From a virus (lineage: Duplodnaviria; Heunggongvirae; Uroviricota; Caudoviricetes), in the IMG/VR virus record IMGVR_UViG_2974665086_000001, positions 1-54,699 of that record: a DNA stretch of 54,699 nucleotides. One strand, given 5' to 3'. The notes under the pieces are model-generated. The model did not search any database, was not told where the DNA came from, and was given only the letters and a program-made list of their open reading frames with translations. The translations under genes and the position numbers were made by a program. This document shows, one piece after another, positions 8,184 to 30,469 of this stretch (its first letter is position 1; every line of letters starts with the position of its first letter).

Positions 8184-9695
8184 TCACGTTCTGACATTTG
8201 CCTTAATTGTAGCAAAGTCTAGACGATTTGAAAAGTTACCGTCTACATAAACAGTTTGAAGATAGTTCTGACCCTGTTCGTCAAGCAGTTCCAGTTCTTC
8301 GGTAGAAAGCTGGTCCTCAAGAAAGAAGTCTTCCAGCACATCATCGAACAAAACTGCAACACGACCCTTGGCAGACTTCTTCGTACCATTATCCGTGATC
8401 GGGTCCTTAAAGATAGCGCGCTCTTCGCCATTGATAACAACGTTAGTTGCCTTCATAGCAAAACCAAACGTATCTCGTGTCACGTACTGGTATGTATACG
8501 AACCCACACCGAATACGACATTGCCGCTAGCAAATCCCTTATCAGCAAGACGACGGCAAATATCATCAGCACGCTCATAAGTAATGCTGTCGCCATAAAT
8601 AGCACCGATGTGTGGATCAAGTTCCTTAAATCCCGCATCGTTTACAGTTCCACCAAAAATATCCCATAGAAGTTCGATAACACCCTTGACGCGGTTAACG
8701 TCATTTCCTGCATTGTACTGAGCAAAGCTCTCGCTCGAAGTATTCAGACCACAAAGAATGTCTGCCGGATCGCCCGAGTCAGGACGGATAACAAGCTTGC
8801 CGTCTCGTGCCATAATCTTATCCTTAAGATTAGGCAGAATAACAGTCAGCACATTCCACAAGTCCCAGGTATCAGAAACAACAGATACGATTCCTGTGGG
8901 GTACAGATCAAGCAAGTGCTCGTAAGTAGCCTGTTCGTCTTCCGGTTCTGCACCGCCCGCACACATAACCGAGTGCTCGGTAGCAGCAACAGACAACAAC
9001 ACAGGTTCAGGAACCTGGCCCGAGTGATCGTAATAGTGCTTCTGAATAACGTCCTTGGCTACGATGCTGTCCGAACCGAGGAAGCTCAAAAGGTGAGCCG
9101 CGCCCGACGTGCCAGCAGACTCGATAGAGCTGAGTCCACGGAAGCTGAAATCGTGCAACTGGAAATCAACGACCGCTTCGGGTGTCCCTGTCTGGTCAGC
9201 CCAATCCAAAAGCAAATCACGCATACGCTTTGCCTGTGTTGCGCTTGTGCAGGGAAGCCATACAGCAGCACTAATAGCAGACTCGAAGTAATTCACAAGC
9301 CAGAAGAAACGTGGATCAGTATTCTCTACTGTGAACATAGGTACACGCAATGGGACGGAATACCCCTCTGGTACCGCCTTGAATTCGAGCGGAACATAAC
9401 CCAGCTCGTGCAGTTCACGAATGTGATCAGTGCCGATGTTATTCGGTCCTAGAATCTGATCTAGGTTTGTCTGGTACTCTTCACAGATTGCATCGATATC
9501 ACCCGCAAAGAACTTACGGAATGCTTCGTGAAACTGGTCCAAGAAAATCTGCAAACCAAAGAATACGACACTATCGATACCTTCAATACGCGAGGTACGC
9601 GGAGTAAAGTTAGATAGAATCTGCGTAGTACCCTCAGGATACTGCCTACGGTGATCGAACTTATATGCGTCGATCCAATTCATAATGTTAGTCAT
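8184..9695 (-). CDS. Nicotinamide phosphoribosyltransferase family (Nampt/NadV; likely Namat of NARP1)
   Basis: DAYKFDH, LHDFSFRG, AATEHSVM, SVVSDTWD, VIRPDSGDP, IYGDSIT, FKDPITD motifs. Confidence 0.92.
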   Translation of the reverse strand: MTNIMNWIDAYKFDHRRQYPEGTTQILSNFTPRTSRIEGIDSVVFFGLQIFLDQFHEAFRKFFAGDIDAICEEYQTNLDQILGPNNIGTDHIRELHELGYVPLEFKAVPEGYSVPLRVPMFTVENTDPRFFWLVNYFESAISAAVWLPCTSATQAKRMRDLLLDWADQTGTPEAVVDFQLHDFSFRGLSSIESAGTSGAAHLLSFLGSDSIVAKDVIQKHYYDHSGQVPEPVLLSVAATEHSVMCAGGAEPEDEQATYEHLLDLYPTGIVSVVSDTWDLWNVLTVILPNLKDKIMARDGKLVIRPDSGDPADILCGLNTSSESFAQYNAGNDVNRVKGVIELLWDIFGGTVNDAGFKELDPHIGAIYGDSITYERADDICRRLADKGFASGNVVFGVGSYTYQYVTRDTFGFAMKATNVVINGEERAIFKDPITDNGTKKSAKGRVAVLFDDVLEDFFLEDQLSTEELELLDEQGQNYLQTVYVDGNFSNRLDFATIKANVRT

Positions 9696-26882: not shown

Positions 26883-28274
26883 TTGATTAGAATAGCTGAT
26901 TATACAAGGTATCCAGAAGCCTTTAAGAAGTTTGGAATTAACTTTACAGAAGAACCGGGTTGGCGTGAGCGCGGCCACGGAGATATAGTTAAAGTACAGT
27001 TTATCGTTATCCACCACACAGCAGGTGGAAATGATGCGGGTGACATTAGAATTGTTACATACGGCAGATCAGATTTGCCAGGACCACTATCTCAATTAGT
27101 TTTGAAGAGAAATGGTGATCCACATATCGTTGCTCAGGGTGTTGCATGGCACGCTGGTTATGGTCCTGCAATGTGGGGAGCGCCAGCAGGCAACGGTAAC
27201 TACTACTCGATTGGTATTGAGGGTGTATCTAACGGTTATAACGACTGGACAGAAGCACAGAGAGCTAATTATCCTAAGGTAGTAGCAGCTTTGCTTAAGG
27301 ATATGGGCTTGCCGTCAGATAGATGGATTTTCCACAGAGATTACAACAAGCGCGATGGTAAGATCGATCCCGCTGGTTTTGACGCGGGTTGGTTCGGGCG
27401 TGAGGTTAATCGTTGGTACAACGACGGTGGACAGCCTGTTGAATCTGCCATTCAAGCAAAGCGTAGAGAAAACGCATGGCTAGGTAATAAGACTATCCCA
27501 GAAGACGAGCGTAAGACTCTCGATGGTGTAGGACGTTATGCTAGTTACGATAATGGATATGTGTACTGGCATCCAAGTATCGGTGCTCGCACAATTAAGA
27601 ATGGTCCAATCTGGGATTATTATGCAGCACAAAAGTGGGAACAAGGTTTCTTGGGTTACCCAATTAACGATACTCACGATCTAGGAGACGGCAGAAGTGC
27701 TCAGGCTTTCCAGAACGGTTCTGTTTACTCAGGCCCAAAGGGAACTTACCTGGTTATGGGTCAGATCGGTGCAGAATGGGCTAGACTTAACTGGGAAAAG
27801 GGTCCACTAGGAATGCCCATCTCAGAAGAGCTAAAGAGTCCAGCCGGTATTATCCAGAAGTACGAAAATGGTACTATCTTTTACACAGTGGCGGGAGGAG
27901 CTAGAGCTACATATGGTCTAATCGAACAAACACGTTCACGACTAGATCAGGAATTCAGCTTTGGATATCCAGAAAACAGCGAGTCACCTTGCTTCAATAA
28001 CACTGGACGATTCAACCACTTCGTGAAGGCTAGTATTTATTGGAAGCGTGGCACTGAAACTGCCTTTGCAGTAGCCGATCCAGCTAGAGAAATCTGGGGT
28101 AAGATGGGATGGGAACAGGGAAGACTTGGTTATCCTATCTCAACAACTAGTCCGAAGTTCGGTTCTCTCGAGATTCGTAGAACAGACTTCGAGGGCGGTT
28201 CAATTGAATACAATACAAAGACAGGCGAAATCACACTTATTATCAGTGGAAAGGTTGTAGACCTACCGAAGTAA
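26883..28274 (+). CDS. Endolysin: N-acetylmuramoyl-L-alanine amidase plus LGFP repeats
   Basis: IHHTAG, HAG, IGIEG, HRDY..KIDP; repeated WE.G.LG.P motifs; probable start ATA at 26892. Confidence 0.9.
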   Translation: MIRIADYTRYPEAFKKFGINFTEEPGWRERGHGDIVKVQFIVIHHTAGGNDAGDIRIVTYGRSDLPGPLSQLVLKRNGDPHIVAQGVAWHAGYGPAMWGAPAGNGNYYSIGIEGVSNGYNDWTEAQRANYPKVVAALLKDMGLPSDRWIFHRDYNKRDGKIDPAGFDAGWFGREVNRWYNDGGQPVESAIQAKRRENAWLGNKTIPEDERKTLDGVGRYASYDNGYVYWHPSIGARTIKNGPIWDYYAAQKWEQGFLGYPINDTHDLGDGRSAQAFQNGSVYSGPKGTYLVMGQIGAEWARLNWEKGPLGMPISEELKSPAGIIQKYENGTIFYTVAGGARATYGLIEQTRSRLDQEFSFGYPENSESPCFNNTGRFNHFVKASIYWKRGTETAFAVADPAREIWGKMGWEQGRLGYPISTTSPKFGSLEIRRTDFEGGSIEYNTKTGEITLIISGKVVDLPK

Positions 28275-28283
28275 GAGTATAAT
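28255..28283 (+). promoter_or_regulatory. SigA-type promoter at the lysin 3' end
   Basis: TTGTAG-17 bp-TATAAT. Confidence 0.6.
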
Positions 28284-28289
28284 TACTTA

Positions 28290-28482
28290 TGTCAGCGTAG
28301 TTAGGCCAGGCGGCAATCCTGCGAACATGGCGTATAGTGGTCATACGGTTGATCTTGACTACTGGGGGTCCACCTTTACCCCAATCGTGCAGAAGACCGG
28401 CAGTTATAGGGATTCTTACACCCTGGTCTTAGGTATTTCGCTACCTTAGGTAGTCAATAGGCGGTCGAGAGGCCGTCTATTG
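28290..28482 (+). ncRNA. Candidate structured small RNA of unknown family
   Basis: Own promoter; at least 7 helices identified by eye; ends in a 12-bp GAGA-capped hairpin. Confidence 0.45.
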
Positions 28483-28558
28483 GCATATCTGGACCTTTTA
28501 CTATAGTTGGTTTACTACTACTTTAGTAGGAGTAGAAATATGATATAATTTTACTACT

Positions 28559-30469
28559 ATGACTTTAGATAATGTATCACAACTACCAGTAAATCCAGTG
28601 GAGAAAGACCCAGGACACCCCAATGACCACAAAATCATTCACGCAGCACTAAAAGAAATTAAGATTCATATTGATAGAGGTCGATCTTATGTAGATGTGG
28701 AGGATTTCAGACAGGCATCTGATACAGCAGATCACCAGATGGTTCAGAGAGCTGTGACTTTTGCCAAGGATAATGGTGTTAGAGAAGTTAGATTAAAGTC
28801 TAGCAATTATACTTTCAAGCAGGGTATCAACATGAATGGTTGTTATCGCCTGACAATCAGAGGAAATGGACTTAGAAGTACCGAGATTTTCGTGCCCGGT
28901 ACAGCAGCAAACAACCAAGTTGACTCTGTGTTTTGGACAAACGGTCCCTGTGCTGACTTGACGTTCGAGGATTTCACTATCAAGGGAACTGTTGTTGACG
29001 ATGCAACCGGACCTCGCAGAGCTAGAGTATTCAGCCCTACGCCAGGTTATTCTCAGGCGTTTACCTTCCGTGGCGATAGAATCCCAGCCAACGACGGCTC
29101 AACACCTAACCCAGCCTACCCCAAGGTTGAAAACATTAAGATCAACAACGTAGCGATCAACGGTTCACGCACCCTTCCATTCCTATTCTCGGGAGTATCG
29201 GGTACAGCAGAAGCAACTAACTGTGAGTTCAGAAACACAATGGACCCAGGTTGGATTTACTGTGAGCGAGTTGTGGCGCATAATCTAGTCTCAGTTCTTT
29301 CAGCAGATAACGGATTCTCTTTCAGTCGTGGTAATAAGTCGGTTATTGCATCAAATCTATATGCAATTAATCCCGCGTTCTATGGTCTATGGGTATCAGG
29401 ATTCCTAACTACAGATGGTCCAGCAGGCAAGGGACCAGAGAACTTTACTATTTCCAATGTCAGCATTATGAATGCAGGATTGGGCGGTATTGTACTAGAC
29501 AACGGTCCTAAGAACGGTAAGATCACAGGTATTTACATTAACGGAGTCAGCAGAGGACCATCGGATGAGCCAGACGGCTCGGGAGGTATTGGTATTCGCT
29601 TTGGTGGTTATCCTAGTGACAACAGAGTATCGCCAACAGACTACGCAAGTAACATCGAGATTAACGACTTTGTACTGATCGATTGTGCAAAGGGCGGTAT
29701 TCAGGTTACTGGTTCAAAGGATATTTCAGTTCGAAATGGTTTGATTATCAACGCTGGTTCTGAGTTTGACTATGACGGAACAACAGTTATCGCAGATACT
29801 TCGACAACACAGAACTTCGGTATCGGAACAGGCGGTATTGCAGCCGGTACGGTGTCAGGGTTCAACGCTACAGACGTTAAGGTTATTGATAACAGAGCTA
29901 CACCGAGAACTAACTACCCATTATATCTAGACGGAACGGTAGCACCAGACTACTCGGGAATCCTGTTCTCTGGAACACGCAGAACATCAGCAACAGACAG
30001 TGCTTCGTTTGAACGCAGAATGCTTGGTTCAACTATCATTCAGTCAATGCTTATTTTGCCAAGTGGTTTAAGATCAGGTGCAAATGCTTCTACAGGAACG
30101 GTTCGCGGTTCTGACGTTAATGGTGCAGCAGGTTCGAGAAGACAAATGGCCCAGGCTTTAACTGCCAGTGTCGCTCGTTGGGACGTTGCAGCTACAGGAG
30201 ACGCAGAGAGTACAGGTAACGCAGGGTCTAACTTCGCGATTGCAGCTTATGCAGACAATGGAACTAAGATTGCCGATCATCTTACTATCAGAAGAACAGA
30301 TGGTCGATTAACTGCTAACGGAGCTATCCAATACAAGAGTTATACAACGGCGACTAGACCCACACCAGCCAGTGTAGGAACAGGATCATGTATTTTCGAT
30401 ACTACTTTGGGTAAGCCGGTATGGTCTGACGGAACAAACTGGAAAGACGCAGCGGGAACTACTGTTTAG
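28559..30469 (+). CDS. Tailspike/depolymerase-like protein (pectin-lyase beta-helix)
   Basis: DVEDF..(DD)..VQRA-type lead-in; parallel beta-helix-like repeats; C-terminal TRP..G..FDTTLGKPVW..G..W motif. Confidence 0.7.
   Translation: MTLDNVSQLPVNPVEKDPGHPNDHKIIHAALKEIKIHIDRGRSYVDVEDFRQASDTADHQMVQRAVTFAKDNGVREVRLKSSNYTFKQGINMNGCYRLTIRGNGLRSTEIFVPGTAANNQVDSVFWTNGPCADLTFEDFTIKGTVVDDATGPRRARVFSPTPGYSQAFTFRGDRIPANDGSTPNPAYPKVENIKINNVAINGSRTLPFLFSGVSGTAEATNCEFRNTMDPGWIYCERVVAHNLVSVLSADNGFSFSRGNKSVIASNLYAINPAFYGLWVSGFLTTDGPAGKGPENFTISNVSIMNAGLGGIVLDNGPKNGKITGIYINGVSRGPSDEPDGSGGIGIRFGGYPSDNRVSPTDYASNIEINDFVLIDCAKGGIQVTGSKDISVRNGLIINAGSEFDYDGTTVIADTSTTQNFGIGTGGIAAGTVSGFNATDVKVIDNRATPRTNYPLYLDGTVAPDYSGILFSGTRRTSATDSASFERRMLGSTIIQSMLILPSGLRSGANASTGTVRGSDVNGAAGSRRQMAQALTASVARWDVAATGDAESTGNAGSNFAIAAYADNGTKIADHLTIRRTDGRLTANGAIQYKSYTTATRPTPASVGTGSCIFDTTLGKPVWSDGTNWKDAAGTTV

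Follow-up and report, generated by a model that had tools for sequence, protein, structure and literature searches.

CopA/CopT of plasmid R1 and the OOP RNA of lambda are trans-acting antisense RNAs that act on mRNAs or replication primers. The T7 downstream box and the epsilon enhancer are phage mRNA elements complementary to 16S rRNA, the mechanism of which is disputed, and phage action on host translation is known via proteins and tRNAs. No paper on a phage RNA pairing with ribosomal RNA was found in the literature, and the paper describing the Rhodococcus phages considered here does not mention non-coding RNA. On the host side, the mycobacterial toxins MazF-mt3 and MazF-mt6 cut the sequence UU^CCU in helix/loop 70 of 23S rRNA, and they act on free 50S and not on 70S, so that this strand is reachable in free subunits (PMC5408214).

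The window, that is the whole stretch of 54,699 nucleotides analysed, carries between its lysin and tailspike genes (plus strand, ~28291-28492) a locus that is probably an independent and presumably transcribed small-RNA gene of a virulent Rhodococcus siphophage. Our main reading, to which we give a probability of about 0.6, is that this phage RNA gene was derived from inverted 23S rDNA and that its transcript would be antisense to 23S rRNA, with two arms conserved. Like CopA/CopT and OOP, the product would be a short, structured and terminator-ended RNA pairing via a conserved exposed stretch. Unlike them, its predicted target is rRNA, which would be contacted by two separated arms bracketing a target hairpin, and the phage gene appears to derive from the target gene itself rather than from a phage gene's opposite strand. 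It shares with the T7 downstream box and the epsilon enhancer the complementarity of a phage sequence to host rRNA, and those elements are thought to affect translation; they are short, lie in or beside coding starts and pair with 16S, whereas the Rhodococcus phage RNA is a separate gene or 3' element predicted to pair with the interface side of 23S. The toxins MazF-mt3 and MazF-mt6 share with it the same 23S loop, the UU^CCU site lying at the end of one of the arms (arm B) or being covered by it, but they are host proteins. The match of the phage RNA begins 3' of helix 69 and not inside it, and a hairpin is kept at the place of helix 71. Reading of the sequence by eye revealed no guide-RNA boxes of the C/D or H/ACA type, and bacteria are not known to use guides of either type.

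All sequence strings quoted in the initial annotation were located where it had placed them. The putative promoter, recognised from the sequence and from its homologues, lies on the plus strand and consists of a -35-like TTGTAG (28255-28260), a 17-nt spacer and the -10 box TATAAT (28278-28283); the end of lysin A, with its stop codon at 28272-28274, falls within it. A simple consensus promoter scan did not call the TTGTAG promoter because its -35 element matches the consensus at only 3 of 6 positions. The corresponding sequence is TAGACA-17-TATAAT in NiceHouse and L030 and TAGACA-17/18-TATACT in Dorin, Francesca and L066, these three having constant hexamers and a variable spacer; Peregrin and Weasels2 carry extended -10 boxes. 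In every homologue the -10 box is situated about 7 nt ahead of a G. The predicted small RNA of ~195-200 nt covers positions 28291-28492 of the plus strand, its 5' end being set from the -10 box and its 3' end from the terminal hairpin together with the limit of strain conservation.

Among strains, the body of the RNA gene appears to be under purifying selection and the adjacent spacer free to vary. One strain contig showed no changes in 28275-28620 versus 13 in the lysin gene, and a second showed 2 changes in 28290-28490 and at least 12 changes plus indels in 28493-28536. Contigs from RNA-labelled sequencing runs carried parts of the lysin gene only, or probably stem from DNA, and are uninformative on expression.

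The gene was also identified in the Rhodococcus phages NiceHouse, Dorin, Francesca, Peregrin, Grayson and Weasels2 and in three IMG/VR contigs. Family members hold one copy per genome, and the predicted RNA length across the family is 165-230 nt. The upstream gene varies by member (lysin A, an HNH gene, a tailspike-like gene or an esterase) and the downstream gene by lineage (tailspike, serine protease or major tail protein); each downstream gene has its own -10 box located past the terminal hairpin. In L034 only arm B and the hairpin are present, directly after the major capsid gene. Cultured SEA-PHAGES isolates, grown on R. erythropolis and R. equi, are among the members.

Blastn of the region against the phage collection gave no matches, and relatives were located via flanking genes and motifs only. 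A search of IMG/VR with lysin A and the major tail protein as bait yielded no further relatives, and a gapped pattern run against metagenome contigs returned one already known contig and one chance match inside a coding sequence. The 16-mer AATCCTRCGAACATGG has 28 matches in IMG/VR; those other than L030 were set aside as chance matches, as the second motif is absent from them, and a 3-mismatch match to the second motif in L010 proved to be coding sequence. True family members score 41-84 bits with model R1, and the 80 matches to the 3' motif listed from bacterial genomes all score at most 29 bits; no bacterial copy was found among them, L155 being ambiguous. The four lineages could not be aligned with one another over their 5' domains.

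The initial annotation had proposed an autonomous small RNA, with a promoter and a terminal hairpin belonging to it, and this is supported by the conservation of promoter and terminator in four lineages, the single copy, the lack of a conserved ORF, the differing downstream genes and the purifying selection among strains. The initial annotation could not assign the RNA to a known family, and the Rfam scan of the whole window gave no matches at gathering score. With Rfam 15 at E up to 10 only noise was obtained from the window (12-17 bits versus cut-offs of 50 and 229); the eight homologous loci yielded only tRNAs, in L034, and ARAGORN called no tRNA or tmRNA genes on the window.

Comparison with the actinomycete 23S rRNA stretch CCTAAGGTAGCGAAATTCCTTGTCGGGTAAGTTCCGACCTGCACGAATGG indicated what the initial annotation had missed, and what is by alignment the essence of the locus: a piece of 23S rDNA in inverted orientation, with invariant bases antisense to 23S rRNA. 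The minus strand aligns as a diverged, inverted copy of part of the host 23S rDNA. The colinear alignment of the minus strand with 23S gave z = 9.0 for Weasels2 over offsets 0-108, z = 5.3 for NiceHouse and z = 4.4 for Peregrin. The source fragment is presumably ~1924-2030 in E. coli numbering. The 50-mer CCTAAGGTAGCGAAATTCCTTGTCGGGTAAGTTCCGACCTGCACGAATGG was present with up to two mismatches in 110 of the 201 Actinomycetes genomes sampled, the great majority of the matches listed being exact. As the fragment is inverted relative to phage transcription, the predicted transcript is antisense to 23S rRNA.

The invariant core of arm B, AUUUCGCUACCUUAGG (28435-28450, plus strand), is the exact antisense of 23S CCUAAGGUAGCGAAAU, which we take to be 1924-1939. 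The first base of this target is the last base of helix 69 and the remainder extends into helix/loop 70; in the Rfam LSU model the target is unpaired save for that helix-69 base and, as single closing pairs, C1-G5 and G11-C38. The exact antisense run is 16 nt long in the window, Dorin and L066 and 18 nt long in L030, while arm B of Weasels2 keeps all 18 pairs, one of them as a G.U wobble, with a longest exact run of 10 nt. In most of the nine family members arm B is either unchanged or differs only in ways compatible with wobble, and three of the four kinds of substitution preserve pairing by wobble. The wobble cases are A>G opposite U (Weasels2, NiceHouse) and C>U opposite G (Francesca, Peregrin); in Peregrin and L034, arm B places a C opposite A.

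Arm A, UUACCCCAAUCGUGCAG (28376-28392, plus strand), contains the core UCGUGCAG (28385-28392), an exact antisense match to 23S CUGCACGA, which forms the unpaired strand on the 3' side of helix 71 (1962-1969 by our assumed numbering), and an extension antisense to GAAUGGCGUAA with 2 mismatches. NiceHouse and L030 lack UCGUGCAG and carry instead AAGUCGUUAC, antisense to the adjoining 23S GUAACGACUU. The duplex energy of arm A alone is ~2-4 sd better than that of shuffles, and the strain variant 28387 G>A breaks one arm A pair. In the Rfam 23S model the strands opposite both arms are unpaired junctions; they flank helix 71, the segment skipped, and lie at the subunit interface beside helix 69. 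When a 139-kb genome is compared with 4.6 kb of rRNA, an exact match of 16 nt is expected by chance, shuffles giving 14-17 nt, so that the case is built on position, colinearity and context rather than on this match by itself.

Cofolding with an 84-nt 23S fragment predicted the same bipartite hybrid in all five RNAs tested (the window, NiceHouse, Dorin, Weasels2 and Peregrin), with paired offsets 0-13/19 and 37/39-54/61 and a net gain of -23 to -25 kcal/mol. Shuffles, which were made for the window and Weasels2 only, gave -6 +/- 3 kcal/mol and none of 60 was as good; the minus-strand RNA cofolded with -7 to -10 kcal/mol.

On its own, the plus strand folds better than shuffles (z = -2.76, with 2 of 200 shuffles equally good). 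The 5' block AAUCCUGCGAACAUGG (28315-28330, plus strand) is kept as AAUCCUACGAACAUGG in NiceHouse and L030, as seen by alignment and pattern matches, and is absent from the Dorin and Peregrin lineages. The following plus-strand hairpin, UGGGG(G)...CCCCA (28363-28383), continues through its 3' arm into arm A; its counterparts are GGGAGU/ACUCCC in NiceHouse, GAGAGU/ACUCUC in L030 and GGGG/CCCC in Dorin, with a compensatory G-C to A-U change between NiceHouse and L030. The middle hairpin AAGACC/GGUCUU closing AGGG/CCCU (28393-28430, plus strand) stands at the place of helix 71 and varies by lineage. In Dorin, Francesca, L066, Peregrin and Weasels2 it shows a UCAAGUU loop, a bulged A and three compensatory pair changes, and in NiceHouse and L030 this region is strongly unlike from one to the other.

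The terminal hairpin (28453-28484, plus strand) abuts arm B and is the presumed terminator. The GAGA tetraloop (28467-28470) that the initial annotation had described was confirmed, but the stem, formed by 28453-28466 with 28471-28484, has 14 bp and not 12. Across nine sequences both partners have changed in 13 of the 14 pairs, and 89.5% of its cells are paired versus 70.8% in shuffles; in a natural strain variant, 28454 T>C, a U.G pair of this hairpin becomes C-G. Peregrin carries on the plus strand an unrelated hairpin followed by U6 at this position, and the window, like most members, has no U-run directly 3' of the stem. The UAUCU tail (28486-28490, plus strand), kept in NiceHouse, L030 and Weasels2 according to folds and alignment, is able in folds to lengthen the terminal stem via the AGGUA of arm B. 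Arm B can also form a 4-bp mini-hairpin (28442-28445 with 28449-28452). This intramolecular pairing likewise accounts for the wobble-compatible changes of arm B.

Of the other helices listed at the outset UGGGG/CCCCA was upheld, as was the terminal hairpin, while in NiceHouse and L030 the helices CAGG/CCTG, CGTAT/ATACG and AGGTA/TACCT were missing or shifted out of register. A closing helix between the 5' end and UCGC, seen in the folds of the window, NiceHouse and Dorin, was not adopted, being absent from Peregrin, Weasels2 and L034. The conformational switch proposed earlier, in which TTGACTAC (28355-28362) would pair alternatively with GTAGTTAG (28297-28304) or GTAGTCAA (28450-28457), found no backing, as neither alternative partner of TTGACTAC is conserved; the variant 28454 T>C would break the TTGACTAC-GTAGTCAA pairing and strengthen the terminal hairpin.

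The antisense 16-mer occurs in IMG/VR in 22 distinct contexts. Nine of these have CCATTCGTG (at most 1 mismatch) upstream and ten have a hairpin and a T-run downstream on the antisense strand; neither feature was found in the 17 contexts of the reversed control 16-mer. Raw enrichment of the 16-mer in IMG/VR was not seen (32 versus 23 for the reversed control). Unrelated IMG/VR phages carry shorter two-armed versions with antisense-strand terminators.

These data bear on several other readings of the locus. Most of the inverted copy is only ~50-65% identical to 23S, which a neutrally decaying rDNA fragment would explain, the region being kept only because its promoter and terminator punctuate the passage from lysis to tail genes; strong hairpins are common after late genes, and 16-nt rRNA matches at the scale of a genome can be chance. 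The decay is, however, very uneven, with arm B exact in four members and its neighbours rebuilt, and the whole 200 nt are under apparent purifying selection among strains beside a variable spacer. A promoter serving a relic alone would be odd, and unrelated phages have independently shortened versions with the same two arms, so that we consider such a relic unlikely. It is likewise improbable, in our judgement, that the region acts in cis and not as a free RNA, forming the 3' UTR of the late message upstream (lysin, or capsid in L034) and serving as stabiliser and terminator or as a tether by which released 50S subunits are kept close to that message: the upstream gene varies between members, and a conserved promoter lies just upstream in every Rhodococcus-phage member. 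Lysin A transcripts must nevertheless run into the RNA gene, and the position of the L034 arm B and hairpin immediately behind the major capsid gene agrees with a role of this kind.

A product made from the minus strand, mimicking the helix 69-71 junction and serving as decoy for a ribotoxin, a ribosomal protein or an assembly factor, is suggested by that strand being the sense copy of 23S and by the mycobacterial MazF toxins cutting exactly the same loop (PMC5408214). The UUCCU site is, however, not kept, the window reading UACCU and Dorin UACAU, and only Peregrin UUCCU. Neither a promoter nor a terminator was found on the minus strand of the locus, its fold is no better than shuffles (z = -0.23) and the U-run terminator of Peregrin is on the plus strand, which makes this very unlikely. 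Endonucleases of the I-CeuI and I-PpoI type recognise sites in the same 23S rDNA region, and the locus might be a DNA-level target or landing pad of such a homing endonuclease. An HNH endonuclease gene lies between lysin A and the RNA gene in Francesca and upstream of lysin A in Dorin, but none is annotated beside the RNA gene in the window, NiceHouse or the Peregrin group; only 14-18 bp of rDNA identity remain, the helix 69 half is replaced by an unrelated hairpin, and promoter, strand bias and second arm are left unexplained, for which reason we regard this possibility as highly improbable. The riboswitch-like attenuator, ribozyme and 40-codon product at 28327 considered at the outset are hardly credible. 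There is a structured region with a hairpin just ahead of the next gene, and the 40-codon ORF exists. Yet the attenuator reading fails because the downstream gene is lineage-dependent and has its own promoter, with a -10 box past the hairpin, and the switch is not conserved. Rfam offers no match to a ribozyme or riboswitch even at E up to 10. The ORF has no counterpart, no ORF being common to the lineages; NiceHouse reads ATG GTC TAG there and its copy has no ORF of at least 20 codons.

Under the reading that we prefer, an RNA antisense to 23S rRNA, the captured 23S copy would have mostly decayed or been rebuilt as hairpins of its own, with the two arms kept. The arms would pair with 23S in particles that leave the strands accessible, namely nascent or pre-50S particles or free 50S, and form a two-armed hybrid with helix 71 looped out. 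In the mature 70S, tertiary contacts occupy the target strands and the interface is not exposed, so that binding is perhaps limited to precursors or free 50S. Such binding might interfere with late 50S folding or 30S-50S joining, or might cover helix/loop 70. Few parts of the ribosome are as conserved as the target junction, helices 69-71, which also makes bridges to the small subunit; by gripping it, an RNA could control subunit joining or 50S maturation, or counter toxins cutting there. The same two-armed design in unrelated uncultured phages points to a widespread, undescribed handling of host ribosomes, and as the members are cultured virulent phages with a laboratory host the idea is directly testable.

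A more specific function is a long shot: the RNA might be a splint or shield of helix/loop 70, giving RNA-guided rRNA repair as a counter-defence against the MazF-type ribotoxins of Mycobacteriales. By pairing with both flanks of the loop it would, as a shield, hide the UU^CCU site in free 50S or, as a splint, hold the two 23S halves in register, in which case the phage's RNA ligases could reseal the cut. An Rnl2-like ligase is noted in the genome of this phage. RtcB-like and other ligases have been reported in phages of clusters CB and CE (PMC13313380).

The phage record is 139,262 bp long with direct terminal repeats, the window being its first 54.7 kb. Analysis of the gene order indicated that the putative small-RNA gene (about 28291-28492, plus strand) lies in a 284-bp gap between the lysin A gene (26883-28274; Amidase_2 and LGFP repeats) and the next gene, coding for a beta-helix tailspike (28559-30469). 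In the phage collection the closest relative is Rhodococcus phage NiceHouse, whose flanking genes are about 80% identical at the nucleotide level. Relatives of the full element were found in NiceHouse and in the 136-kb IMG/VR contig of locus L030, and further relatives in the Rhodococcus phages Dorin and Francesca and the IMG/VR contig of L066, and in Peregrin, Grayson and Weasels2. The high-GC phage contig L034 carried the 3' module only, directly after the major capsid gene. In the records carrying it the homologous element is single-copy per genome.

The gene upstream of the element was lysin A, an inserted HNH gene, a tailspike-like gene or an esterase, and the gene downstream was a tailspike, a serine protease or a major tail protein, with its own -10 box in every lineage compared, in agreement with the separate promoter assigned to it in the initial annotation. 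Since these downstream genes differ and each has its own -10 box, a leader or riboswitch of one particular gene, which had also been suggested, is excluded. Upstream of the tailspike, a TTGGCA-16-TATAGT promoter-like site (10/12 matches; 28480-28549 region) begins within the 3' arm of the terminal hairpin, and an extended -10 box, TGATATAAT, is located at 28542-28549; with only 9 nt separating this box from the ATG at 28559, the tailspike mRNA may have almost no leader.

Comparison of the homologues supported the proposal of a stand-alone RNA: the locus is real and conserved, and is best taken as a non-coding gene. A 40-codon ORF at 28327 had been mentioned as a possible product; no ORF was common to the relatives and the NiceHouse copy has none of 20 codons or more. 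The element had been placed in no known family, and Rfam likewise returned none, E values up to 10 included; ARAGORN found no gene for it. The plus strand folded better than its shuffles (z = -2.76), and the minus strand gave no fold signal over shuffles (z = -0.23).

The promoter (28255-28283) and the predicted transcribed region were both compared among relatives and strains. A -10 box precedes a G by about 7 nt in every member. Dorin, Francesca and L066 share unaltered TAGACA and TATACT hexamers around a rewritten 17/18-nt spacer, the pattern expected for a real promoter. Natural variation was read from the contigs of two natural strains. In the first, 28275-28620 was unaltered, against 13 changes in the lysin gene; the second showed 2 changes in 28290-28490, followed by at least 12 changes and indels in 28493-28536. 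The contigs of these two strains show that selection acts on the whole RNA unit. The spacer 3' of the RNA gene (28493-28536) is hypervariable among natural strains, and one wastewater strain has 220 other letters in place of 68 nt where the tailspike gene begins (28556-28625 region).

The strings quoted in the initial annotation were all found in place in the window sequence; the helices drawn from them were retained in part. The terminal hairpin with its GAGA loop is present and consists of 14 bp (28453-28466/28471-28484), not 12, and alignment of nine sequences revealed that 13 of the 14 pairs had changed on both sides. Peregrin carries an unrelated hairpin and U6 in its place, so the terminal hairpin is presumed to be a terminator. 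Covariation also supported the UGGGG/CCCCA hairpin, and a middle hairpin with the loop UCAAGUU showed three compensatory pair changes (Dorin and Peregrin groups). The remaining helices and the proposed conformational switch were not conserved in NiceHouse or L030, and the switch would be broken by the 28454 T>C variant of the second strain, which converts a U.G at the base of the terminal hairpin to C-G.

The sole stretch common to all members, (A)AUUUCGCUAYCUYRGG, directly adjoins the terminal hairpin. An actinomycete 23S gene (Rfam LSU, 2266 bits) contains CCATCCTAAGGTAGCGAAATTCCTTGTCGGGTAAGTTCCGACCTGCACGAATGGCGTAACGACTT, and the segment designated arm B (28435-28450) is the exact antisense of 23S CCUAAGGUAGCGAAAU. 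The core of a second segment, arm A (28376-28392), is UCGUGCAG at 28385-28392, the exact antisense of 23S CUGCACGA, and its extension UUACCCCAAU has two mismatches to the antisense of 23S AAUGGCGUAA. NiceHouse and L030 lack UCGUGCAG and carry instead AAGUCGUUAC, antisense to the adjacent 23S segment GUAACGACUU. The arms run colinear with 23S, and what they skip between them is the helix 71 hairpin of the Rfam consensus structure. The two targets, which we take to be about 1924-1939 and 1962-1969 in E. coli numbering, are unpaired junction strands in this consensus, the exceptions being two single closing pairs and the final base of helix 69. Of 201 Actinomycetes genomes sampled, 110 contained the 23S 50-mer running from CCTAAGG to GAATGG with at most 2 mismatches, and the great majority of the matches listed were exact.

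The 16-nt match alone is not beyond chance: the 139-kb genome also yields 14-17-nt exact matches to shuffled rRNA, and the raw 16-mer count in IMG/VR was 32 versus 23 for the reversed control. One stretch of the whole phage genome, GCCGGGTGAAGCAGCA at 86758, matches 23S exactly in the sense direction over 16 nt, which is at chance level in shuffles. The case beyond chance rests on the arm B match coinciding with the invariant core of the element, on homology to 23S that is colinear across 60-108 nt, on cofolding and on the context in other phages. Cofolding with an 84-nt 23S fragment predicted the same bipartite hybrid in five lineages (offsets 0-13/19 and 37/39-54/61), leaving helix 71 folded and yielding -23 to -25 kcal/mol net once the unfolding of both partners is included. 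Shuffles of the window and Weasels2 elements gave -6 +/- 3 kcal/mol (0/60 as good) and minus-strand RNA -7 to -10 kcal/mol.

Alignment of the minus strand with 23S extended over offsets 0-108 in Weasels2 (z = 9.0 against shuffles); z was 4.4 for Peregrin and 5.3 for NiceHouse over offsets 0-61. The minus strand of the element is a diverged copy of 23S rDNA, which makes the gene an inverted rDNA fragment; its hairpin parts have been rebuilt and the parts facing unpaired 23S strands have stayed exact. A free-standing HNH endonuclease gene (L032:4623-5159, L031:1924-2502), which in Francesca separates lysin A from the RNA gene and in the closely related Dorin lies upstream of lysin A, is a mobile insertion adjoining the rDNA-like stretch.

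The best reading of the locus is a trans-acting RNA antisense to 23S, which would also form the 3' end of read-through lysin messages. The RNA would base-pair to both junction strands beside helix 71 where they are accessible: in nascent 23S, in late pre-50S particles or in free 50S. At the end of arm B falls helix/loop 70, which contains the UU^CCU site of MazF-mt3 and MazF-mt6; MazF-mt6 cleaves this loop in 50S and not in 70S (PMC5408214), so free subunits leave the strand accessible. The consequence we favour is that subunit joining or late 50S folding would be blocked or delayed, followed by shielding of helix/loop 70 from ribotoxins and then by marking of 23S for double-strand-specific cleavage. 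Against strong constraint are a mismatching strain variant in arm A, an arm B position in Peregrin and L034 where a C faces an A, the absence of a U-run behind most terminal hairpins, and wobble-compatible arm B changes that equally fit its own 4-bp mini-hairpin. The element occurs in cultured phages, so the antisense idea is testable there. The invariant UUCGCU (28437-28442) includes U^CGCU, the recognition sequence of MazF-mt7 (PMC5408214), an overlap that may be coincidental, from being antisense to AGCGAA.

Among distinct 16-mer contexts in IMG/VR, CCATTCGTG (at most 1 mismatch) was found within 70 nt upstream in 9 of 22 and a hairpin and T-run downstream, on the antisense strand, in 10 of 22; both were absent from the reversed-control contexts (0/17 each). 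Many matches in other phages consist of GCGCCATTCGTGT, a 4-nt linker, ATTTCGCTACCTTAGG and a terminator, which is the two-armed design in shortened form. A model of the element's 3' module (R1) scored family members at 41-84 bits, the other-phage modules at 28-30 and chance 16-mer matches at up to 29. No paper was found in the literature on phage RNAs pairing with 23S rRNA, and from its sequence the locus would belong, as a new long form, to an as yet undescribed class of 23S-antisense phage RNAs.

Longer antisense 23S stretches including helix 71 were observed in IMG/VR at L220:141 (-) and L223:4924 (-), with local scores of 87 and 35 when compared with antisense 23S; they fall between the short modules and genuine rRNA genes, L232 for instance. 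On a 3.8-kb contig of a Propionibacteriaceae MAG, L155:551-620 (-) carries GAGTGTTTCGCTACCTCAGGTAAGT, with 19 nt in common with L034 and GAGTGT as in Francesca and L066; only a weak hairpin follows and no fold signal was detected (z = 0.27), and it may be a remote member or a coding sequence. In L034 a second small-RNA-like unit (8282-8385, plus strand), called by neither ARAGORN nor Rfam, directly follows the arm B and hairpin module. Its features are an extended -10 box (TGATAAGAT), a GCACGCC/GGCGTGC closing stem with a T-run behind it, an internal GGGTTCGATCCCC similar to a T-arm, and a stretch, CCUCCUCCC, resembling the 16S 3' tail.
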